DNA of 14,456 bases, from the NCBI GenBank assembly GCA_965224245.1, contig CBDCYW010000021.1:1-14456 (forward strand), read 5' to 3'. This DNA is from Candidatus Eiseniibacteriota bacterium (lineage in GTDB: Bacteria > Eisenbacteria > RBG-16-71-46 > CAZAMP01). This document shows, piece by piece, positions 657 to 11,380 of the stretch. The notes beneath the pieces are model-generated. The model searched no databases and was not told where the DNA came from. It worked only from the letters and a program-made list of their open reading frames with translations. Made by a program: the position numbers and the translations under genes. How positions within the stretch are numbered: position 1 is the first letter of the stretch; every line of letters starts with the position of its first letter.

Positions 657-1250
657 CTACTTGAGCGAGGCGCGTAGACGGTTTGCCAATGAGCCCGCCT
701 TGTTCCCGACGACCTCACGCGGCCCGAGGTGCCGATCGGTGTAATCCAGCGCCGCCTTGTTGATCGAGACCTTGATCAAGTCGGGGTTCAGCACCTCCTC
801 GGTGTCCGGCCTTCCCTTGATCGCGACCTTCACGCTCTTGCCCGACTTCTCGACGAGGAACGTCACGCGCTCGGCGACGTTCGTGGCGCGGCCGCCGCTG
901 AACTCGCAGGGAACGCCGGCCTTCTTGCAGGCGTCGCGATAGGGGGCCAGCGCGGCCCGGTAGCCGTCCTTGGCGGTGGCGATGATGGTCCGCGCCTGCG
1001 CTTCCAGTGCTTCGGCCTCGGTCTTGGCCCGGGCGACCGCCGACTCGGCCTTAGTGACGGCGCCCCGGAGACCGTCGAGGTCGGGGGTGTCGCCGCCGGT
1101 CGCGGCGCGTGTGCGCGTCTTCGGGGTCGGCCGGGCCCCAGGGGCCTTCTTCGCCCCGGTCTTCGCCGTGCGCCCCGACTTCGCGCCGGTGCCGCCCTTG
1201 GTCGCCTTCGCCGCCGTCGTCTTCCCCGGGGCCTTCTTCGTCGTCGCCAT
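657..1250 (-). CDS. Hypothetical protein with a Lys/Ala/Thr/Gly-rich histone-like N-terminal tail and a coiled coil
   Basis: ORF track gives 657..1295. A better start is ATG at 1250, preceded by GGAGGA (1255-1260). It begins MATTKKAPGKTTAAKATKGG, followed by a helical AVTKAESAVARAKTEAEALEAQAR segment. Confidence 0.8.
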   Translation of the reverse strand: MATTKKAPGKTTAAKATKGGTGAKSGRTAKTGAKKAPGARPTPKTRTRAATGGDTPDLDGLRGAVTKAESAVARAKTEAEALEAQARTIIATAKDGYRAALAPYRDACKKAGVPCEFSGGRATNVAERVTFLVEKSGKSVKVAIKGRPDTEEVLNPDLIKVSINKAALDYTDRHLGPREVVGNKAGSLANRLRASLK

Positions 1251-1299
1251 CTCGTCCTCCTGGCTGTGTTGCAGGCGCGGCGGAATGCGCGCCACTGCG

Positions 1300-1674: not shown

Positions 1675-2265
1675 GTGCCGTATCGCGCCCCCGAGACCAT
1701 GACCACCGCCGAGCAGCGGCGGCTCCTCGACGTCAGCGCCGAGAGCCCGAGGCCCCGCGATCACGTGATGATCTCGCTCGCGCTGGGCACCGGGCTTCGG
1801 CTCGGCGAGCTCCTCAGCCTCGACGTCGGCGACGTCAGCCCCGATGGCGTCCACGTGCGCACACGCGTGAAGCTGCGAGTCGAGACGACCAAGGGCGCGC
1901 GCAAGGGCGAGGTGTTTCTGCCGGATCGGGTCGTCGAGAAGGTGACGCGGTTCCTGGGTTGGAAGGCGATGATGCGGGAGTCGCTCGATGGCGACGCGCC
2001 GCTGTTCATCTCGTCGTGGGGGAGGCGGCTGTCGCCGAGGCGGACGCAGATGATGTTCAGGGAATGGCAGGCACGCGCCGGCCTTGACAGGTATTACTGC
2101 TTCCATGCACTTCGACACACGGCAGTGACGTCCGTATACCGGATGAGCCGCGACCTGTTTCTCGCCCAGCGATTCGCGAGGCATGCGTCGCCGCTCACGA
2201 CGGTGATCTACACTCATCCGAGCGATGAGGAGATGGCGGAGAGGGTGCGAGACCTGCGGTGCTGA
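1675..2265 (+). CDS. Tyrosine recombinase/integrase, catalytic domain only (~196 aa)
   Basis: Catalytic motifs GLRLGEL (R), TTKG (K), FHALRH (H-x-x-R) and RHASPLTTVIYTH (H...Y). AGGAGG at 1663-1668 favours GTG 1675 (or ATG 1669) over 1615. No N-terminal core-binding domain is present. Confidence 0.93.
   Translation: MPYRAPETMTTAEQRRLLDVSAESPRPRDHVMISLALGTGLRLGELLSLDVGDVSPDGVHVRTRVKLRVETTKGARKGEVFLPDRVVEKVTRFLGWKAMMRESLDGDAPLFISSWGRRLSPRRTQMMFREWQARAGLDRYYCFHALRHTAVTSVYRMSRDLFLAQRFARHASPLTTVIYTHPSDEEMAERVRDLRC
2140..2265 (+). repeat. Direct repeat copy 1: last 42 codons of the tyrosine recombinase
   Basis: Ungapped alignment to 2963-3088 (offset 823); about 90/126 nt identical by hand count, with an exact 21-bp core ttcgcgaggcatgcgtcgccg at 2173-2193. 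Confidence 0.92.
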
Positions 2266-2298
2266 GTCGAGCCACGCCCGGCAGTCGGGACGCCACGC

Positions 2299-2329
2299 GA
2301 AGGGCTTCCACCGTTCTCGGTAGCCCTTC
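2299..2329. other. Intergenic bulged stem-loop downstream of the recombinase
   Basis: GAAGGGCT-tcc-ACCG-ttct-CGGT-AGCCCTTC: 8-bp and 4-bp stems separated by a 3-nt bulge; no U-tract. Confidence 0.5.
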
Positions 2330-2399
2330 CGACCTGGAAAGGACCGCTATGACCTAGAATCCTCGCTCCTGGTAGACTCTTCCATCGGAGGCCCTTTGA

Positions 2400-2961
2400 A
2401 TGCATTCCGAACTTGATCCGAAGTTCGCAGCCTACGAGCCAGGCATCCCGCGAAGGCAGGTCCCCGATGTCGCCATTCGTGATGCCACGCCCGCTGACGC
2501 CGAGGGCATAGCCCAGGTTCACGTGGAGCGCCATGGCACCGACCTCGACGACGTCGTTCCCAGGGTTCTCCATGACCTCCAGCTAGTTGCAAACGGCGAA
2601 CGCCAGGCATATCGGTGCGTCGCCGTGCACGACGGTGCCATCGCCGGCTTTGCCAATTGCGACTTCGTGGATTCGCCCACGCCACGACCTGCCGCCCGGC
2701 ACGACGGGCTGGGGGCTCTCCGGCATCGTGATACTGCGAGCATACCGCCGATGTGGCATCGGTGAACGCCTTACGCGACGGCGTCTCGACTGGCTTCGCG
2801 AGCGTACCGACGAGGTGACCTACTTCGTCGAGATGGTCAATCGCGCGTCCATCGATCTGCACGCCCAGCTAGGCTTCGAGGAGATCGCGCGTGACGTTCT
2901 GATTGGCGGCGACCGTTCGCGCGGGCTGCACGGTGTCTATCGCCTTCGCTTTCGCCGGTGA
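2400..2961 (+). pseudogene. GNAT-family N-acetyltransferase, frameshifted near 2665-2690
   Basis: The N-half (IRDATPADAEGIAQVH...CVAVHDGAIAGFA) is in ORF 2400..2765. The C-half (GIVILRAYRRCGIG acetyl-CoA motif; NRASIDLHAQLGF) is in the +1 frame, ending at 2961. GGAGG RBS at 2387-2391. Confidence 0.85.
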
Positions 2962-2962
2962 C

Positions 2963-3088
2963 CGAGTTTCCCGCGTCCTGTTCCTGGCGTAGCGGTTCGC
3001 GAGGCATGCGTCGCCGTTGACGACGATCGTGTACACTCATGTATCAGATGAAGAGTTAATGGTGAGAGTTCGGGACCTCTCCTGCTGA
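2963..3088 (+). pseudogene. Direct repeat copy 2: orphan alternative 3' end of the tyrosine recombinase
   Basis: Translates RVSRVLFLA*RFARHASPLTTIVYTHVSDEELMVRVRDLSC* versus RMSRDLFLAQRFARHASPLTTVIYTHPSDEEMAERVRDLRC* (31/41 aa identical). TAG at 2990-2992; exact 21-bp core at 2996-3016. Confidence 0.92.
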
Positions 3089-3165
3089 TGCTCGACAAGA
3101 CGATGGTCGAGGTCACGCGCAGGTAGGTAGTCTCGCACGCGTCCATCCCAATCGGAGAAGTCCTC

Positions 3166-4890
3166 TTGCGCCGCGGCATCCGAGACTTGGCGAGAACAAC
3201 GGCTGCAGCAGCGACGATTATGTTCTGCACGTTCGCCGCCTGCGACGACGGTGTGTCTCCCGATACCACACCTCCAATCGTAGCCATAGTTGCGCCGGCA
3301 GATGGGGCTACCGTTACTTCGTCCACGGCAATCCGCGCCGACGCAACGGACAACGACCGCGTGCGCGACGTTGCCTTCTTCGTGGATGGTCAGGTGCTGG
3401 CAACGGACGCCACCGCTCCGTACGAAGTGCAGTGGGAGCCAGCATTCTGGGCGGATGGCGGAATCCATTCACTTCATGCACGAGCAACCGATCAATCGGC
3501 GAATGTCGGACTAAGTGAAGTGCTGAACGTCACCGTCGAGAAGTCTGAAAATGCGACCGTACAACTAATATCTCCCGAAGATGGTGCGAGCGTTCGGTTC
3601 GGCGATGTATTCACGTTGGCGTGGGAAGCATTAGCCGGAGCCGAGACCTATACCGTGCAAGTGGCACCCGACGACCTGTTTTCTACCATCTCTTTCGATA
3701 CGACCACAGAGAATGTCGAGGCGCAGGTATGCCCACTCGACTTCGGACGTTATTACTGGCGAGTGAGAGCGACTCACGAGACGGGTGCGGCGACAAGGTG
3801 GAGTCGTGTCAGGCTGCTCGCGTACGGGCGCTCCTTCAACAGTACCTTCGGTCCTGGTGTTGCGCGCGACGTTGAGATCACTCCAGACGGTGGTTTCATC
3901 ATTGCGGGATGGAACTACGCATCCAATCTTGTCGTCGTTCGAACCGACGCCGATGGAGATACACTCTGGACCTACACATCCACGTCGTCCGGTGACGACT
4001 ACGGTCACGCCGTCGTGGTTGATCCAAATGGCGGTTTTGTAATCGCCGGCGAAAGGTCTTTGCCACCGTTCGCTGCACTCGTTCTGAGAATTGATGACGA
4101 CGGGGATGTCGTGTGGGAGCGCACGTTCCTCGCCGGGGGCTACGCGGCCGGGGCCAAAGGGATCATCGCAACCGCCGATGGTGGATACGCAGTCGTTGGG
4201 ACAGCAAACACGCCGGTCGGTGGTGACCTCTGGCTCCTGAAGATGAACTCAGTTGGAGAGGAAGAATGGCAAAGGTCGTTCGACCTGTGCGACCAAGACA
4301 ACGGGAGATCCTTGTGTCTCGCCGACGAGGATGGCTATGCAATCGCTGGAGTCAGCTGTGGTGGGGATGGTGCGGGCCGTCGACTCGTCGTCGTTCGCGT
4401 AGATGGTGACGGCCGCGAGATGTGGTGCAGCGTGTACGGAACGTCGTATGAGACTGGGAACGCAATCGTCTCCAACGGCGCTGGTGGGTTCGTCTGTGCT
4501 GGCCAAATAGCGGACGCCGAAGTAGGAGGTTGGCTCGTCGGGATCGACGGCTCGGGAGAATTACTTTGGCAGCGCACATTGGCGGGTGGCGTTGCCGGGA
4601 TCATGTACGACGTGGATCGTACGGCAGATGGCGGCTTCGTGGTCACCGGGTTCACGAGCACGGGCGGTAGTGAGCGTCGTCAAATCTACCTTGAGAAGAC
4701 GGACCCAGCGGGAGTTGAGGAATGGCATCGACTTCTCGGTGGGGACGGCGACGACGTAGGGTATGCGGTCAAGGCGGACGAGGATCTTGGGTTCGTGGTG
4801 GCTGGCTGGAATGACAGCGATCGACTCCTCCGCCTTCTAAAGACCTCACCGACGGGCGAACTAATCGACGAAGAGACGGGTGCGCGATGA
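3166..4890 (+). CDS. Putative lipoprotein with a bacterial Ig-like domain, an FnIII-like domain and beta-propeller repeats (574 aa)
   Basis: Signal peptide with lipobox FAA-C (Cys codon at 3241). DTTPPIVAIVAPADGATV...VAFFVDG...APYEVQW is Ig-like; GRYYWRVRA is FnIII-like; repeated W..T...D.G..V....DGGFVIAG blades. TTG start with GGAGA upstream. Confidence 0.85.
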   Translation: MRRGIRDLARTTAAAATIMFCTFAACDDGVSPDTTPPIVAIVAPADGATVTSSTAIRADATDNDRVRDVAFFVDGQVLATDATAPYEVQWEPAFWADGGIHSLHARATDQSANVGLSEVLNVTVEKSENATVQLISPEDGASVRFGDVFTLAWEALAGAETYTVQVAPDDLFSTISFDTTTENVEAQVCPLDFGRYYWRVRATHETGAATRWSRVRLLAYGRSFNSTFGPGVARDVEITPDGGFIIAGWNYASNLVVVRTDADGDTLWTYTSTSSGDDYGHAVVVDPNGGFVIAGERSLPPFAALVLRIDDDGDVVWERTFLAGGYAAGAKGIIATADGGYAVVGTANTPVGGDLWLLKMNSVGEEEWQRSFDLCDQDNGRSLCLADEDGYAIAGVSCGGDGAGRRLVVVRVDGDGREMWCSVYGTSYETGNAIVSNGAGGFVCAGQIADAEVGGWLVGIDGSGELLWQRTLAGGVAGIMYDVDRTADGGFVVTGFTSTGGSERRQIYLEKTDPAGVEEWHRLLGGDGDDVGYAVKADEDLGFVVAGWNDSDRLLRLLKTSPTGELIDEETGAR

Positions 4891-4966
4891 GACCATGCGC
4901 CATCACCTCGACTGGAGTTGACCCGTTTTCGTGGACACTGCCACGCTTGTGCGATGGAGGTCCACA

Positions 4967-5278
4967 ATGCCCCGATCTCGATACCCCGAAGAGCTGAAGG
5001 CTCGGATCATCGAGCTGGCGCGGGCCGGGCGTAGCCCGGAGTCGCTGGCCGAGGAGTTCGAGCCGTCAGCGAACGCGATCCGTAACTGGGTCAAGCAGGC
5101 CGATCTCGATGACGGCCGACGCGACGACGGCGGCCTGACCAGCTCCGACCTGGCGGAGCTGCGCGAGCTTCGTCGTGAGAACCGGCGGCTTCGCGAAGAG
5201 CGCGAGATCCTAAAAAAAGCCGCGGCCTGGTTCGCTCGGGAGGCCGAGTCGACGCCGAAAAAGCGTTCGCGTTCGTGA
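4967..5278 (+). CDS. IS3-family transposase OrfA (HTH plus leucine-zipper-like segment)
   Basis: ATG at 4967 after GGAGG (4956-4960). Sequence RYPEELKARIIEL...IRNWVKQ...ELRELRRENRRLREEREILKKAAAWFARE. Confidence 0.92.
   Translation: MPRSRYPEELKARIIELARAGRSPESLAEEFEPSANAIRNWVKQADLDDGRRDDGGLTSSDLAELRELRRENRRLREEREILKKAAAWFAREAESTPKKRSRS
5212..5219 (+). other. Programmed -1 frameshift site (A7G) that would produce the OrfAB transposase
   Basis: taaaaaaagc near the end of orfA; orfB is in the -1 frame; this is the established IS3-family mechanism. Confidence 0.8.
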
Positions 5279-6168
5279 GCGCGAACCGGGCCGATCATGC
5301 CGTCACGACGATGTGCCGCGTGCTGGACGTCTCCACCAGCGGGTACTACGCGTGGCGACGTCGTTCGCCGAGCAAGCGCGCTCGGGAGAACCATCGTTTG
5401 GGCCAAGAGATCCGAGCGATCCATGACACCTCGCGTGGAACCTACGGCGTCCCTCGCGTCCATGCCGAGCTCGTGGAGCGTCGCCGGGAGGCGGGTGTGA
5501 CGGTGTCGCCGAGTCGCAACCGGATCGCCCGTCTGATGCGTCTGTTGGGCCTTCAGGGGGTCACTCGGCGCAAACGCTACAAGACGACGGTGCGAGATCA
5601 TCGCGATCGGGTGGCGCCCGATCTGGTGGATCGCCAGTTCGTCGCCAGCGGCCCCGATGCGTTGTGGGTGGCCGACATCACGTACGTTCCGACGTGGGTC
5701 GGCTTCCTGTTCCTGGCGGTCGTGCTGGACGTGTGGAGTCGTCGCGTGGTCGGTTGGGCCATGGCCAGCCATCTTCGGACCGAGCTCGTTCTCGACGCCC
5801 TCGAGATGGCGATCATGCAGCGCCGACCGACGACCCAGACGATCTTCCATTCCGACCAGGGAAGCCAATACACGTCGATCGAGTTCGGCAAGCGCTGCCG
5901 GGAAGCGGGCATCCGCCCATCCACGGGATCGGTGGCCGATTGTTACGACAACGCGATGTGCGAAAGCTTCTTCGCCACGCTCGAATGTGAGCTCATCGAT
6001 CGCACGGCATTCCCGAACCACCAGATCGCGACCCGTGAGGTGTTCTCGTTCATCGAGGGCTGGTATAACCCGCATCGTCGACATTCAGCTCTCGGCTACC
6101 TCTCTCCCGCGCAGTTCGAAAGGAGGACTCAACAAGACAGAAGACCAGAACCCGGAATCCTCAACTGA
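5275..6168 (+). CDS. IS3-family transposase OrfB (DDE/rve domain)
   Basis: DDE motifs WVADITYV, HSDQGSQY and YDNAMCESFF, plus YNPHRRHSALGYLSP. Confidence 0.95.
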   Translation: MSANRADHAVTTMCRVLDVSTSGYYAWRRRSPSKRARENHRLGQEIRAIHDTSRGTYGVPRVHAELVERRREAGVTVSPSRNRIARLMRLLGLQGVTRRKRYKTTVRDHRDRVAPDLVDRQFVASGPDALWVADITYVPTWVGFLFLAVVLDVWSRRVVGWAMASHLRTELVLDALEMAIMQRRPTTQTIFHSDQGSQYTSIEFGKRCREAGIRPSTGSVADCYDNAMCESFFATLECELIDRTAFPNHQIATREVFSFIEGWYNPHRRHSALGYLSPAQFERRTQQDRRPEPGILN

Positions 6169-6251
6169 GAACTGTCCACGGAAACGGGGGACGCCCAGAC
6201 TGAGTTGGACGTTGGCTCGGCTCTTCGGGAGCGGCACTGGTGGAGATTGCG

Positions 6252-6860
6252 TTGAGCGTAAAGACGATCACTATCAAGTTCGACGATAGATGCTTCGAGT
6301 GTGGCTGGTATACCGACGGGACGACGGTTCACGTGCAGTGCGAGTTCGGCACCGCCAGCGAAGGCCTTGGCGCATCACACAATCACAAGAAGAAGGCTCG
6401 GAAGATGCTCCGGAGGATGATCGAGAACGGACTCTTCGGGGGCACGCCTGAGAACTACCTGGACAAGGCAAGGGACTTCCGAGACTGCGTGCGGGAATTG
6501 ATGCCGACCTGTCCAGGATGGGAGCAGGGGCATGCTGCGGCTGGCACCCGTCGCCTGATAGGAGACGCGTTCGAGCTATCTCTGAAGGCAGTGTGGCTGG
6601 CTGAGGGTGCCAGATGGCATGCCTTGAAGGACGCTGGTCATGACCTGACACGGCTCCTTGAGGGTTGCAACCTAGCCGGAGTGGCAGATGAACACGCCGA
6701 TCTCGTCAGGCGCATATCACCGTTTCACAAGCGGCGCGACTTCATGTACGTGAATCGCACCGGCGTTCGCTATCTCCCACCCGTGGGCGACCTGGTTGAC
6801 GCCCTAGATGCGATCATCGCCCTGGCCGAGCCGGTTTGCCGCGAGGCCATGATGCGGTGA
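6252..6860 (+). CDS. HEPN-like domain protein with an extra N-terminal domain
   Basis: AFELSLKA...G...LKDAGHDLTRLL matches the HEPN E..LKA / GH.L pattern. Start is TTG 6252 (GGAG at 6242-6245) or GTG 6240. Confidence 0.65.
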   Translation: MSVKTITIKFDDRCFECGWYTDGTTVHVQCEFGTASEGLGASHNHKKKARKMLRRMIENGLFGGTPENYLDKARDFRDCVRELMPTCPGWEQGHAAAGTRRLIGDAFELSLKAVWLAEGARWHALKDAGHDLTRLLEGCNLAGVADEHADLVRRISPFHKRRDFMYVNRTGVRYLPPVGDLVDALDAIIALAEPVCREAMMR

Positions 6861-6917: not shown

Positions 6918-7256
6918 TCATCGATGTCCAAGCCGACTGATACGTCTACGCTGGTCCGACCATGAGACCGACCGAAGCGCCTCGCGAAGCCGTCGCTCCC
7001 CGACGACGATCGACCCGTCGACCAACCCCACCTGGATCTCCGGCGCCAGCCCCAGCAGCGCCGTGATCTGCGAGAGCCTCGCCCTCGACACCCCGGCGAC
7101 CCGCGCCACGTCGGCGAAGCTCTCGATCCGCCCGTCGCGCACCATCGCGTCCAGCACGAGCGCAAGCGCCATCAACCTCGCCGATCGGGGCACGGTGGGG
7201 GCCTCAGGTTCGGGGGCCGCCTTGGGGCGAAACGTGGCACGAATGGTCACACTCAC
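6918..7256 (-). CDS. Small HTH protein coupled to the serine recombinase
   Basis: SFADVARVAGVSRARLSQITALLGLAPEIQ is a ParB/Spo0J-like HTH. Its GTG start overlaps the recombinase stop (GTGA, 7253-7256). Confidence 0.8.
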   Translation of the reverse strand: MSVTIRATFRPKAAPEPEAPTVPRSARLMALALVLDAMVRDGRIESFADVARVAGVSRARLSQITALLGLAPEIQVGLVDGSIVVGERRLREALRSVSWSDQRRRISRLGHR

Positions 7257-8782
7257 CGCTCACCGCCGGGCAGAAGCGAGACCGCACCCTCACGAAACGT
7301 GATCGCCACCTCGCCGGTCGACCCGTCGTACTCGACACGCTCGACGAGCAGCGTGAGGGTCTCGTGCTTCTCACGCGCCGTCAGACGCCCCCACAGCGCG
7401 TCGAACTCCGACAGGGCTTCCGAGACGCCCGTGCGGTTGATCGTGCGGCCACGGACCGCTGTGAGCGTTTCCTGGGCCACACGGCGGCGGCGCTCGGTGC
7501 TCCTGAGGCGTCGGTTGATCTCGGCGATGCGATCGTCGTCGTGTTCGTCACGGGCGCGGTTGAGTTCTCTACGGAGCTGCTTGATCTCGGCGTCAAGCAG
7601 GCGGACGTCGTTGGCGAGTTCTTTCACGCGAACCTTGGCCTGGGACTTGGCGGACGCGACGGTGGCGGCGATCAGCTTGGGGTCGCTGCCGATGCCCCGG
7701 ATCTGGTCGATGACGAACGCTTCGATCTCGCCAGCGGCGACCGGTGCGGTGGGGCAGGCGTGCGCCCCTTCCTTCTGGCGACGGGTGCAGACGTAGTACG
7801 CGTACGATCGGCGGCGCTTCACCGTCGCGGTCCGGGTCATCGCGGCGTCGCAGGCGGAGCAGCGGAGTAGGCCCGCGAGCAGGGCCGTGCGCTTCGTCCT
7901 CGGGGCCGAACCGTTCGTCACGCGGTTACCGGCCAGACACGCCTGCGCGGCCTCGAAGGTCTCGGAGTCCACGATGGCCTCGTGCTCTGCGTCCACGATC
8001 TCGTCACCGCAGCGGATCTGGCCCACGTAGAGGGGGTTCGTCAGGAGCTTCTGGAGCGTCGACTTACCGAAGTCCACGCCACCGTGGACCTTGTCCGAGG
8101 CCGACACCCAGCGTTTCGTGGTCCAGCCCCGGCGGCGGATCTCGGCGATGGTGGCCGAGAGCGATCGGTTCTCCAGGTAGACGCGGAAGACTTCTCGGAC
8201 CCGCTCGGCCTCGACCTCGTTCACGGCGAGCCGGCCACCACCTTCGGCCACGTCGTACCCGAGCACCGGCACGCCTCCGGTCCACTGGCCCCGTCGCCGC
8301 GCTGCCCGCATCTTGTCTCGGGTGCGCTCGCGGATCATCTCGCGCTCGAACTCCGCGAAGCTCATCAGCATGTTCAGCGTCAGCCGGCCCATCGACGACG
8401 ACGTATCGAGTTGCTGGGTGACAGACACGAGGCCAACCTCGTGCTTCTCCAGCGTCTGCATGATCCGGGCGAAGTCCAGCAGCGAGCGGGAGAGTCGGTC
8501 GACCTTGTACACGACGATCCGGTCGATCAGGCCCGCCTCGACGTCGCGCAGCAGCCGCTGGAACGCCGGGCGCTCGGTTGTGCCACCGGAGAAACCGCCG
8601 TCGTCGTAGCGGTCGGGAAGCGGCATCCACCCGAGACCCGCCTGCGACCGGACGAACGCCTCGGCCGACTCCCGCTGGGCGTCGAGCGTGTTGAAGGCCT
8701 GATCCAGGCCCTCGTCGGTGGACTTGCGGGTGTAGATGGCGCAGCGCACCTCGGGGGCCGATGTGGTCGACAGGACGGCCAT
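7253..8782 (-). CDS. Large serine recombinase (resolvase + recombinase + Zn-ribbon + coiled coil), ~509 aa
   Basis: RCAIYTRKS (catalytic Ser), YKVDRLSR, FAEFEREMIRERTRD, LAGLLRCSACDAAM...YYVC...C. ATG at 8782 sits just after the DUF2924 stop; the ORF-track extension to 8920 overlaps DUF2924. Confidence 0.95.
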   Translation of the reverse strand: MAVLSTTSAPEVRCAIYTRKSTDEGLDQAFNTLDAQRESAEAFVRSQAGLGWMPLPDRYDDGGFSGGTTERPAFQRLLRDVEAGLIDRIVVYKVDRLSRSLLDFARIMQTLEKHEVGLVSVTQQLDTSSSMGRLTLNMLMSFAEFEREMIRERTRDKMRAARRRGQWTGGVPVLGYDVAEGGGRLAVNEVEAERVREVFRVYLENRSLSATIAEIRRRGWTTKRWVSASDKVHGGVDFGKSTLQKLLTNPLYVGQIRCGDEIVDAEHEAIVDSETFEAAQACLAGNRVTNGSAPRTKRTALLAGLLRCSACDAAMTRTATVKRRRSYAYYVCTRRQKEGAHACPTAPVAAGEIEAFVIDQIRGIGSDPKLIAATVASAKSQAKVRVKELANDVRLLDAEIKQLRRELNRARDEHDDDRIAEINRRLRSTERRRRVAQETLTAVRGRTINRTGVSEALSEFDALWGRLTAREKHETLTLLVERVEYDGSTGEVAITFREGAVSLLPGGER

Positions 8783-8784
8783 GG

Positions 8785-9282
8785 TCAGTCTCTCGCTCTC
8801 TTGGCGCCCCAAAACACCTTGCCGTTCCAGTTCACGCCGGTCGCGGCCCTCGCCGCCCCGCTTAGCGAGCGGTACACCTCGCCGTCGAACTCGAAGCCGC
8901 CGTGCTCGAGGACGCGGCACTCTAGGACGCGGCCTCTGTACTCCCGGCGGAGCACCGTCCCGGCGGGCGGGAGGTTGAGATCACGCGATGACAAGCGTTT
9001 GCGAACGCGAGACGACGAGCGTGCGCCCGCCTCGGCGCCAATCGGTGGTCGCGTGCGCAGGAACGCGAAGTCGGCCAGCTCCCGGGCCCGGGCCATCACG
9101 GCCTCCGGGTGCCCCGAGAAGCCCTCGGCGTCGGCCTGGAGCTTCCAGGCGATGCGTTTCACCAAGTGCGCCTTGCTGTGCGAGCGCGTCTCCTCGCCCC
9201 ACAGGTCCCGGTAGCGCCGCTGAAGGTCGGCGACCGTCATGGCCCGCAGCGTCTCCAGCTCTCGATCCAGGTCCAGGGTCAC
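8785..9282 (-). CDS. DUF2924-family protein
   Basis: LRAMTVADLQRRYRDLWG...KRIAWKLQ...PPAGTVLRREYRG...YRSLSGAARAATGVNWNGKVFWG. GGAGGA RBS at 9286-9291. Usual position directly upstream of a serine recombinase. Confidence 0.9.
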   Translation of the reverse strand: MTLDLDRELETLRAMTVADLQRRYRDLWGEETRSHSKAHLVKRIAWKLQADAEGFSGHPEAVMARARELADFAFLRTRPPIGAEAGARSSSRVRKRLSSRDLNLPPAGTVLRREYRGRVLECRVLEHGGFEFDGEVYRSLSGAARAATGVNWNGKVFWGAKRARD

Positions 9283-9314
9283 GGGTCCTCCTCTCTCGGG
9301 GTGTCAACCGTGGG

Positions 9315-9348
9315 GACATGGACGCTCGGAGTGGCGGGGACATCAAGT
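9315..9348 (-). promoter_or_regulatory. Conserved upstream motif, copy C (CTTGAT-N14-GAGCG-TC-CATGTC)
   Basis: About 26 of 34 positions match copy A (1302-1335). It lies about 33 bp upstream of the DUF2924 start, in the same relative orientation as copy A to its gene. Confidence 0.6.
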
Positions 9349-9449
9349 GGATCGTTGGGGAGCTCGCCGGGAATCAAGCGGAGGTAGGCGCGGGCCAGCA
9401 GAGTCGCGAGCGCCGTGTGATCCAGGTCATTGCTCATGCTGACCATGCG

Positions 9450-9701
9450 CTATCGCGTCGACGAGGCCGCGCTGGGTGCGATCGTCGGTCGCGGGGTATC
9501 GACGGACTGGATGGCCCGTTTCACACAAGCCGCGACGTCCTGTCGAAGACAGGCTCGGAGCCGAACGGCCAACCGAAAGGATGGGTCGTTTGGTTCGCAG
9601 TCGCGCGTGGCGATCGCGAGGATTGGCACGAGTCGCTGCCAGATCGCATCGGTGAGGTCTATCGTCAACGTGTGGGACAGATCGGATCTGTAGGCGGTCA
9701 T
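9450..9701 (-). CDS. Small hypothetical protein (~83 aa)
   Basis: ATG at 9701 overlaps the upstream gene's TGA (ATGA coupling). Helical, protein-like sequence MTAYRSDLSHTLTIDLTDAIWQRLVPIL. Confidence 0.5.
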   Translation of the reverse strand: MTAYRSDLSHTLTIDLTDAIWQRLVPILAIATRDCEPNDPSFRLAVRLRACLRQDVAACVKRAIQSVDTPRPTIAPSAASSTR

Positions 9702-11380
9702 GGCTGTCGTCCGCGAAACATCCACTCGTAGCCTGGTTCGGACACGAGAGCCTTGCGAAGCTTCGTGCGCGCTCGCTTTATCCGCTGTCCCACGGCTTGT
9801 TGTGAAACACCAAGGCCCTCCGCGATGGTGGTCTGCGACTGGCCATCGCAGATGTGTGCGACGAGGATGTCCCGTTCCGTCTCGGTGCAGAATCGAGTGG
9901 CAAGGTCGTTCAACGACTCAGCCAGCTCTGGCTGCATGGGATGGTCCGTGGCACGGAGTTCGAACTCGCCACGGTCGCTTAGCTCTAGATCGTCCGAGGC
10001 CACCAAGAGAAGCCAGACAGGGTAGAAGTTCAAAAACAGGTGATATCGACGTCGAAGCTCCGCGGCGAGTTCGGCATTCGGGTGTTTGAAGACGACGACG
10101 GCGAGCCAAAGGGCGAGAGTCTCGGCGTCAGTGCTTGCGACGAACGACCGGACAACTGGGTCCAAGCCTGGGATCATGTTGCCGATGGACGGCTGTCGGA
10201 AATGCACGAGCTGAAACAGTCGTCGTTCCGCTGGACTGAGCCCCTTCCGGACCTTGCGGTAGAGCTGTCTGTTGATCGCGTCTAGGAACGCGAGCTGGCG
10301 GTTTCTGGCATCGAGCGAGATCAGCTGTAGCGACGCGACGAGGTCTCCATGGCTCGAGACGATGAGGTAGAGGGCCTCGAAGTACATCAGTGGGTCAAGT
10401 TGTGATAGCGCGCCTTCGATCACGGCTACCGCGTGTGCCGGGTTGTCGTAGTCAAAAGCAGTCGGATCGTGGTCGAGGATTGCGACGGCTTCCCGGATGG
10501 CGTCGTCGTCGAGCGAACTCCGGTAGTACTCCACTACATCCACGAACAGGTCTGTCGCAGCATCTGGGTCCACATTACGCGCGACGAGTTCCGCGAACCG
10601 ATCGGGCGCCGCGTCGCGGAGCGTGTGTGGGTGGATGTCGACGCGCGTGAGTATCCGATCTAGTCGATCGAGTATCGCCGTGGCACGATCACCGAAGTCT
10701 GTCCGAGGCACGCTCCTGCACTCGTTGATCAACGCACGAGCTGCCTTCCCGTAGGCGTCATCGGTGTTGATCTCCGCCCGTTCCATGGCTTCGGAGATGG
10801 ACAGCTGGATGCCGGCGTCGCGTCTGGCTTCGCGGACGGCACGACCAAGGAACTCAAGCTGCGCGTCGAGAAGATCGCTGCCCTGCCGCTCGAAGGTTTC
10901 GTAGCATTCCTCGACGAGTTCGAAATGCCGGAAGAGCGGGACCCGTAGCTGGATCTCAGGATCGTCCCATTCAGCCTTTGCCAGCAGCACGCCACTGCTC
11001 TCTGTCACCGGTCCGCCGAGCTCGGCGACCTGCTCCCAAAGAGTGGCGCCGGCACAGCAGGAGAGCCTCAACGCCGCGCGGAGCGTTGGAGAGTGCCGCA
11101 ATGTATCGGGCTCGAACATCCGCTTGCGAACGGGGACGACACGCGATCCCAGTGAAGCAAGAAACGGATCAGCCGCCTCGAAGTCCAGGGCTCCGCGACG
11201 ATGCATGTGCCGCCAAACGGCTGTCTCGACCGGGCACCCAGCGGACTCGTCGTCCGGCAGGATAAGGCGAGCAGTCTCTGTTGCGGAGTCGCAACTCGAG
11301 AGTTCGATGGCCAATGCGTCAGCTTCGATGTAGCCGATGCATGACATGTTGTCCGGGTCGTCGAACGTGAGCCGTTCCAT
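9698..11380 (-). CDS. Large protein (~560 aa) with a C-terminal sigma70 region-4-like HTH; N-terminal ~490 aa unrecognised
   Basis: CTETERDILVAHICDGQSQTTIAEGLGVSQQAVGQRIKRARTKLRKAL. ATG at 11380 follows GGGAGG (11387-11392). Confidence 0.8.
   Translation of the reverse strand: MERLTFDDPDNMSCIGYIEADALAIELSSCDSATETARLILPDDESAGCPVETAVWRHMHRRGALDFEAADPFLASLGSRVVPVRKRMFEPDTLRHSPTLRAALRLSCCAGATLWEQVAELGGPVTESSGVLLAKAEWDDPEIQLRVPLFRHFELVEECYETFERQGSDLLDAQLEFLGRAVREARRDAGIQLSISEAMERAEINTDDAYGKAARALINECRSVPRTDFGDRATAILDRLDRILTRVDIHPHTLRDAAPDRFAELVARNVDPDAATDLFVDVVEYYRSSLDDDAIREAVAILDHDPTAFDYDNPAHAVAVIEGALSQLDPLMYFEALYLIVSSHGDLVASLQLISLDARNRQLAFLDAINRQLYRKVRKGLSPAERRLFQLVHFRQPSIGNMIPGLDPVVRSFVASTDAETLALWLAVVVFKHPNAELAAELRRRYHLFLNFYPVWLLLVASDDLELSDRGEFELRATDHPMQPELAESLNDLATRFCTETERDILVAHICDGQSQTTIAEGLGVSQQAVGQRIKRARTKLRKALVSEPGYEWMFRGRQP

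Follow-up and report, generated by a model that had tools for sequence, protein, structure and literature searches.

Displaced 3' ends of a small tyrosine recombinase gene form a widespread, apparently undescribed cassette-like architecture

Introduction

Why should a recombinase gene be followed, 823 bp downstream and in the same orientation, by a second copy of its own 3' end? This question is raised by contig CBDCYW010000021.1 (C22 below) of a Candidatus Eiseniibacteriota bacterium, whose entire length of 14,456 bp was analysed here and is referred to as the window. The genome amounts to 6.94 Mb and consists of one contig of 6.45 Mb (C1, the chromosome; 69% GC) and 26 small contigs with a GC content of 57-69%. 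Within the window, the gene of a minimal tyrosine recombinase is followed by a gene for a GNAT acetyltransferase, an isolated copy of the recombinase gene's last codons (hereafter an orphan tail) and a gene for a putative lipoprotein. A first inspection of the sequence (the original prediction) had interpreted this order as integron-like gene capture with an insertion site inside the recombinase gene. In the computational follow-up reported here, we found the architecture to be real, directional, recurrent and specific to this recombinase gene family across four phyla (Acidobacteriota, Eisenbacteria, Gemmatimonadota and Nitrospirota), and it represents a widespread, apparently undescribed cassette-like arrangement. 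The best full explanation, to which we assign a probability of roughly 55%, would be an array of displaced tails and cassettes that the recombinase itself most likely joins.

Results

A catalytic-domain-only recombinase and a diverged copy of its tail

The recombinase open reading frame (ORF) extends over positions 1615-2265, and its likely start, a GTG at 1675, agrees with the N-termini of 40 aligned family members. Since these relatives start at the same place, the resulting protein of 196 aa is truly short. Its sole Pfam match is PF00589 (E 1e-25; 91 bits compared to a cut-off of 27.1), and residues R42, K73, H144, R147, H170 and Y179 occupy invariant columns in an alignment of 40 sequences. 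Judged by this complete set of R-K-H-R-H/W-Y residues, the protein belongs to the tyrosine recombinase superfamily, and it aligns by sequence solely to the C-terminal domain of the XerA, XerC and XerD structures. We rejected membership in better-known subfamilies based on scores far below the respective cut-offs. This applied to XerC/XerD (TIGR02224, 82.4 vs 335; TIGR02225, 63.7 vs 330; XerA model NF040815, 90.5 vs 220), to integron integrases, IntI (TIGR02249, 48.7 vs 265 bits; PRK15417, 21.8 vs 435), and to FimB/FimE-type invertases (NF007371, 30.1 vs 222 bits).

The orphan tail at 2963-3088 aligns without gaps to the last 42 codons of the gene (2140-2265), with 90/126 nt (71.4%) and 31/41 aa being identical. 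A tblastn search of the 6.9-Mb genome with the tail retrieved it at E 1.5e-15 (E 1.5e-13 in a separate search) and an nhmmer search with a DNA profile of the family delimited it to 2961-3088 (E 5e-24), so the match is not due to chance. Between the two tails, 18 of the 42 third codon positions differ, and the altered codons comprise 13 synonymous and 10 non-synonymous changes. The sole in-frame stop of the orphan, a TAG at 2990-2992, lies upstream of a 21-nt block (codons 167-173 of the gene) that both tails share without a mismatch; compared to the corresponding block of seven paralogues elsewhere in the genome, the orphan's copy is only 71-90% identical. A crossover within these blocks, when computed, yields an open frame of 591 nt that again encodes 196 aa, plus a circle of 823 bp. 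The gapless alignment, the TAG, the 21-nt core and the 823-bp circle had been given in the original prediction, and its view that the second copy represents a different functional allele holds as well, given divergence chiefly at third codon positions. The proposed gene order on the plus strand was likewise confirmed, except that the GNAT gene proved not to be intact. It is split over two frames (2400-2765 and 2587-2961), of which only the second matches PF00583 (E 1.1e-8), with the frame shift located somewhere around 2640-2710. The gene has no other copy in the genome and is either a pseudogene or affected by an assembly error. Its TGA (2959-2961) ends two bases ahead of the orphan tail.

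Orphan tails recur downstream of full-length family members

The recombinase family comprises at least 2,642 proteins (E <= 1e-10) and, within the window's own class, is carried by 24 of 206 genomes (E <= 1e-30). We surveyed 161 loci with a full gene, namely the best 79 from species genomes, the best 80 from metagenomes and two close viral-contig loci. Up to 10 kb were fetched on each side, summing to 724 kb upstream and 815 kb downstream, and searched by tblastn with 40 family members as queries and by nhmmer with a DNA profile of the last 80 codons (from codon 117 onwards). With tblastn, 55 C-terminal fragments were found downstream on the same strand, as compared to two upstream on the same strand, two upstream on the opposite strand and one downstream on the opposite strand. 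With nhmmer, the count was 73 orphans: 68 downstream on the same strand, four upstream on the same strand and one downstream on the opposite strand. The 68 downstream orphans are spread over 47 of the 161 loci, with a maximum of four per locus (L072), and span the last ~20 to 80 codons of the recombinase gene. They end exactly at the stop codon in 55 cases (in a separate count, 46 of 55 tails had their stop at the family position), and measured from stop to stop they define 68 units with a median length of 958 bp (range 58-5440 bp). The intact gene is almost always the first member of the array. By taxon as stated in the sequence records, arrays occur in 14/30 loci from Acidobacteriota, 5/17 from Eisenbacteria, 2/5 from Gemmatimonadota and 1/1 from Nitrospirales, as well as in 25/80 metagenome loci; seven other loci and the two viral ones contained none. 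As the original prediction had anticipated, homologous loci thus carry repeated tails that separate variable genes. We set aside an assembly artefact as the source, given that the runs shared by the tails of one locus mostly fall short of the assembler's word length and that some arrays reside on megabase contigs. A self-tblastx search for other partial-gene repeats in 85 loci returned 3,512 pairs, mostly spurious, and was too noisy to serve as a control.

The units often consist of one ORF plus a tail, and their cargo is varied. Pfam matches were obtained for 22 of the 52 longest unit ORFs and include RES, Abi_alpha, TIR_2, HSDR_N/RAMA (Mrr/HSDR_N-type), HNH_3, Trypsin_2 (a peptidase), Serpin, TonB-dependent receptor, SDR, NAD_binding_10, AhpC, HTH_17, Lcl_C and Laminin_G_3 families. 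No recombinase domain was detected among the 52 cargo ORFs scanned, nor in the window's unit. By a crude count in this GC-rich DNA, 38 units have their longest ORF on the array strand and 23 on the opposite one. When the ORFs located upstream of the recombinase genes were clustered, the result consisted mostly of spurious GC-rich frames.

A few units contain no cargo at all. In these cases (L121:1853-1911, L162:10585-10678, L053:7959-8093 and L176:3726-3909; units of 58-134 bp), tail copies follow each other directly, and those at L121 and L162 start around codons 179-181, right after the codon of the catalytic tyrosine, 7-40 nt behind the preceding stop.

With regard to genomic context, a large serine recombinase homologue is encoded just upstream of the small tyrosine recombinase in 17 loci, in the order primase-polymerase, DUF2924, serine recombinase, small ORF, tyrosine recombinase plus cassettes (e.g. 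Prim-Pol/DUF3987, DUF2924 and serine recombinase at L063:4827-10585; DUF2924 and serine recombinase at L061:7478-10585). This arrangement looks like one integrative element with two recombinase classes. Other arrays are found among ordinary chromosomal genes, without phage-like recombination genes nearby.

Tails derive from other alleles and are linked to the DNA behind them

Across the family, the stretch from Thr175 to Cys196 is as conserved in the tails as in full genes, and conservation fades gradually leftward. Compared with the resident gene at conserved codons, tails agree at 0.9-0.98 of first and second positions and at 0.4-0.6 of third positions. As divergence thus falls mainly on third codon positions, the tails stem from other working alleles, and we infer that they diverged within working genes of other elements and were captured afterwards. 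Overall identity between a tail and its resident gene is only 60-80%, no window of 100% identity was found in the within-locus comparison, and the median length of the longest identical run is 14 nt. RecA-type recombination needs about 25 nt of identity; the observed runs are short in comparison, which makes it a poor fit, and capture between such unlike sequences would be hard to ascribe to this process.

We then asked what a tail travels with. Among 43 gene pairs with at least 90% identity in codons 117-165, 22 share no related DNA beyond the stop. The right arm (codon 176 to stop) is less than 75% identical in 15 of them and at least 85% identical in five, which places the break of the latter at the stop codon. 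On the other side, only 4 of the 43 pairs show less than 75% identity in codons 75-116. As a rule, a tail moves together with the DNA behind it and not with the gene body. Switches in mosaic genes fall behind codon 171 in two pairs, inside codon 173 in three and behind codon 176; the one directly behind the Tyr179 codon is sharp (L057/L070), and those at codons 181-190 are less clear. Together, the ends of orphan homology and the switches at codons 171-190 would locate the exchanges inside the recombinase frame, without one defined point.

Discussion

Insertion into the recombinase gene as the favoured explanation

The architecture is very probably the product of repeated insertion into the 3' end of the recombinase gene. 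In the scheme we favour, segments composed of a replacement 3' end and cargo would enter the last ~30 codons of the gene in register, and the recombinase would act on its own coding sequence in a zone around codons 167-181. Upon each insertion, the gene would stay whole and receive a new tail including the catalytic tyrosine, and the previous tail would be pushed downstream as an orphan, so that repeated events would give rise to arrays of up to four orphan tails. In the window, the new tail and the GNAT gene would form one unit (823 bp), with the old tail and the lipoprotein gene next in line. The incoming DNA might consist of small circles of tail and cargo, or else of small recombinase-bearing elements whose second gene copy would later be eroded from its 5' side. 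We see about an even chance that the recombinase itself is the catalyst of the joining, and consider self-catalysed, integron-like capture plausible.

Several observations weigh against this scheme. Firstly, the exchange points are not fixed: in the DNA profile, the left ends of orphans are ragged, the earliest at or before codon 117 and the latest at codon 182, and breakpoints are scattered over codons 171-190 and the stop codon. Secondly, we failed to recognise the hallmarks of a site. Compared to other parts of the gene, codons 166-176 show no raised conservation of synonymous sites in the family, no dyad symmetry was apparent in the family consensus when inspected by eye, and both strands of the window's two tails fold no better than shuffled sequences (z +0.98 to +1.98). 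An attC-like hairpin at the tails was rejected on the basis of these folding values, as was the 21-nt block as a family-wide recombination site, given ordinary third-position information there; in the window itself, the block remains the candidate crossover zone. The prediction of integron-like capture inside the recombinase gene hence stands as far as recurrent, downstream, same-strand arrays are concerned, but neither the core as a family-wide feature nor fixed breakpoints and left ends were recovered.

Thirdly, there were no traces of ongoing movement. We saw no circle, excision junction or empty site, and the only public run listed (word share 0.05), in which positions 2272-3081 were almost uncovered, contained no joint linking the two 21-nt blocks and is neutral in this respect; at 80% likeness, contigs of that run covered the recombinase body of diverged relatives. 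When 210 tail-plus-downstream segments were compared with each other by blastn, no cassette appeared in two contexts at >= 85% identity, and the matches were whole-locus homologues only. Nor did any of 55 comparisons match an orphan and its downstream DNA to the current tail of a close relative, the best reaching 0.86 with unrelated downstream DNA. Besides, several of the long tails inspected contain stops or frameshifts in the right arm, too, and there is thus no sign of orphan right arms being protected in place. Tails were absent from 19 Myxococcota-type loci. Finally, the survey yielded 11 N-terminal recombinase fragments (L056:9106-9216, L075:1959-2078, L102:8917-9027 and 3527-3643, L175:4050-4154, and six more), of which nine lie upstream on the same strand. 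The conserved ALGTGL motif (box I arginine) marks the end of five of the 11, and these fragments hint at a possible second exchange point near the 5' end. To these points add the mosaic paralogues and the up1 tails of the window's own genome, which bear on the foremost alternative.

Alternatives to recombinase-driven insertion

As the main rival, we consider recombination through short homologies between elements present in multiple copies. Here, capture would be independent of the recombinase: elements present in many copies would recombine via short conserved stretches, be it through relaxed phage-type annealing, template switching or microhomology joining, selection would keep the recombinase genes intact, and tails would be by-products at a conserved gene that borders a variable region. 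The genome of the window holds eight full-length recombinase paralogues with 85-88% protein identity, located on C22, C23 (two copies), C11, C3, C18, C10 and the chromosome (C1:6.10 Mb), and its only orphan recombinase tail is that of the window. The paralogues belong to phage-like elements of a common order: the divergent gene up1, the recombinase gene, a variable stretch of 0.9-4.7 kb, which in the other copies encodes secreted or surface proteins and defence-type genes, and a conserved block comprising genes for a large serine recombinase, a sigma-like protein, a Sak4-like AAA_24 protein, DUF669, ERCC4 and a primase. In line with this alternative, the eight recombinase genes are whole-length mosaics, whose nearest relative switches every 30-60 nt, and the elements encode their own Sak4-like annealing protein and ERCC4 nuclease. 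The scattered breakpoints with no family-wide DNA site, and the upstream N-terminal fragments with their repeated end at ALGTGL, would also fit.

The best support for this rival comes from up1. The protein, with a Lys/Ala/Thr-rich N-terminus, has no match in Pfam, NCBIfam or PHROG and is not a recombinase by any library used, yet it has orphan C-terminal tail arrays of its own behind the full gene, with two tails each on C11 (C11:45661-48956) and C3 (C3:4281-7609), spaced 1.1-1.6 kb apart. Every up1 orphan tail runs to the stop, behind which lies a conserved, GC-rich hairpin resembling a terminator. The tails fall into two allele types, and the full-length copy C23b is a hybrid of both. Still, we consider recombinase-independent capture unlikely. 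The low identity between tails and resident genes, with its short identical runs, speaks against it, simple crossovers between two elements yield chimeras rather than duplicated tails, and the arrays recur behind one gene family in four phyla, including chromosomal loci without phage-like recombination genes. In addition, the serine recombinase, sigma-like, AAA_24, DUF669, ERCC4 and primase genes of the own-genome elements searched have no 3'-tail arrays.

A second alternative, tandem accretion followed by erosion, assumes that whole recombinase-bearing elements integrate next to each other or into one another's recombinase gene, with the orphans being decaying relics. It would account for the ragged left ends, 7 of the 68 orphans starting at the first codons of the profile (117-119), as well as for the stops and frameshifts in some right arms. 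A few loci with two or three full copies within 6-75 kb and a chromosomal remnant (C1:892570) are also compatible with it. Random end-points, however, should fall into codons 1-98 in half of the cases, whereas most orphans start after codon 140. Likewise, the units are small and often made up of one ORF and a tail, duplicated tails without cargo sit 7-40 nt behind a stop, and the intact gene nearly always comes first, all of which renders this origin rather improbable. Erosion of tandem integrations may nonetheless explain the ragged left arms, and would be compatible with either mechanism, insertion by the recombinase or its recombinase-independent counterpart.

The notion of a one-off local duplication or homologous-recombination scar restricted to this contig draws on the single orphan recombinase tail in the genome and was rejected as virtually without probability, given the same architecture in 47 of 161 independent loci and the many third-position and synonymous differences between the window's tails, which are unexpected for a recent local duplication. 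The large serine recombinase was set aside as the agent as well: the sites of such enzymes share only few bases and the enzyme inserts whole elements, which leaves the 1-kb spacing unexplained.

Relation to known systems

Insertion by the recombinase would invite comparison with integrons, to our knowledge the only well-understood system in which a dedicated recombinase stacks single genes into arrays. Both have a tyrosine recombinase gene followed by one-directional units of ~1 kb, mostly of one gene each and with varied accessory cargo, with the newest unit next to the recombinase gene, as would also be the case here; the 68 small, mostly single-gene cassettes next to recombinase genes in 47 loci conform to this pattern. 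Unlike in integrons, the recombinase is not IntI and lacks an N-terminal domain, and what is repeated is coding sequence from the 3' end of the recombinase gene itself instead of attC, an imperfect palindrome at the cassette ends that folds into a single-stranded hairpin. The array lies downstream in the gene's own orientation, and insertion would rewrite the C-terminus of the enzyme. Integron cassettes excise as circles and re-insert next to the recombinase gene; here, neither a circle nor, at >= 85% identity, a shared cassette was seen. With FimB/FimE-type invertases, the protein shares a length of ~200 aa and the lack of a separate N-terminal DNA-binding domain, but its repeats are direct, with 1 of 73 orphans on the opposite strand.

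Some elements place their attachment site within an integrase gene, a logic that the present architecture would follow. The IntP integrase of myxophage Mx8 is far larger than the 196-aa protein. The attP of Mx8 lies inside the intP coding sequence and integration provides the integrase gene with a new 3' end (PMC6070905). Mx8 recombines with the host attB and thereby alters its enzyme; here, by contrast, the new tail is homologous and full-length, the old one persists downstream, and repeated events build arrays. The 'suicidal' archaeal integrases of the SSV type have their site within the integrase ORF and are hybrids of pieces of different origin (PMC7253208). Integration of SSV splits and inactivates the gene, whereas the present gene would be intact at every step.

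Tandem arrays and integrase-less satellites are also familiar from tycheposons and CIMEs. For genomic islands in the 3' ends of tRNA and protein genes (the Islander principle), one report states that insert-borne sequence regenerates the target and that a displaced fragment marks the far end (PMC4383910). The same composition of intact target, insert and displaced 3' fragment in direct orientation was found here, with the difference that the target is the recombinase gene itself and the ~1-kb inserts have no integrase of their own. Cargo hotspots of integrative and conjugative elements, the subject of another study (PMC10945833), are not the same as recombinase-tail arrays. Such arrays were not described in the literature searched, which did not extend to subscription-only papers. 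What is new is the combination: a recombinase gene as the target, which is kept whole while its catalytic-tyrosine tail is exchanged, and small integrase-less units that are stacked behind it.

It is a tentative idea, for which we see somewhat less than even odds, that this represents a second cassette-capture platform independent of integrons, with the recombinase's own 3' coding end as the attachment site and a C-terminus renewed with each cassette. If true, there would be a second system, with a much smaller enzyme and a site in its own reading frame, implying that cassette capture evolved more than once. In Acidobacteriota, Eisenbacteria, Gemmatimonadota and Nitrospirota, accessory and defence genes would then be assembled into arrays by a minimal enzyme of 196 aa, and this would explain part of the turnover of such genes in abundant, little-studied soil phyla. 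The recombinase might alter its own activity with every capture, and could provide a compact enzyme whose target is set by about 30 codons of its own gene. Even without self-catalysis, displaced tails would be a practical marker that delimits DNA recently gained by metagenome-assembled genomes, much like the displaced tRNA fragments of genomic islands.

Further features of the window and of related elements

The features of the window are compiled in Table 1. Its tyrosine and serine recombinase genes are convergent, with the cargo between them. The second cargo gene has a GC content of 0.54-0.60, below that of the recombinase gene, and its product, as read from the sequence, starts with a putative lipoprotein-like N-terminus. 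An IS3 insertion separates this gene from the conserved serine-recombinase block, and related IS3 copies were found on C19, C11 and C23. The 206-aa ORF has no family match in Pfam, NCBIfam or PHROG and no other copy in the genome.

Table 1. Coordinates of annotated features in the 14,456-bp window
Feature	Position	Strand	Evidence
up1 (212 aa), divergent neighbour of the recombinase gene, conserved in this genome's elements	657..1295	-	
Minimal tyrosine recombinase (196 aa), catalytic domain only	1675..2265	+	PF00589
21-nt block, codons 167-173, candidate crossover zone of the window locus	2173..2193	+	
Current right arm of the tail, codons 174-196 plus stop, including catalytic Tyr179	2194..2265	+	
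GNAT acetyltransferase cargo gene in two frames (2400-2765, 2587-2961)	2400..2961	+	ORF list, Pfam
Orphan (displaced) recombinase tail, last 42 codons in register, stop at family position	2963..3088	+	
Second copy of the identical 21-nt block	2996..3016	+	21/21 identical to 2173-2193
Second cargo gene (574 aa), Big_7 Ig domain and beta-propeller repeats	3166..4890	+	PF17957 (E 1.4e-18), phrog_8401
IS3-family transposase in two overlapping frames, within the variable region	4931..6168	+	rve, HTH_21, rve_3 on 5275-6168
206-aa ORF, last piece of the variable region	6240..6860	+	
Start of the block common to paralogous elements	6949..10262	.	blastn, seven other copies, 77-86% identity
Large serine recombinase gene	7253-8920	-	Resolvase, Recombinase, Zn_ribbon_recom domains

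The eight phage-like elements of this genome share ~75-88% nt identity with each other, and the copies on C18 and C1 are 98.5% identical over the recombinase gene and 700 bp downstream. Seven of the copies reside on small contigs with a GC content of 62-65%, as compared to 69% for the chromosome. In the chromosomal element, a 51-residue N-terminal fragment of the AAA_24 (Sak4-like) gene (C1:6111342-6111494) lies 50 bp upstream of the full gene. Besides, the chromosome harbours a degenerate element (C1:880000-895000) that includes an N-terminal recombinase fragment (residues 1-102; 65% identity), together with a C-terminal up1 fragment, a 48%-identical relative of the serine recombinase and a relative of IS3.

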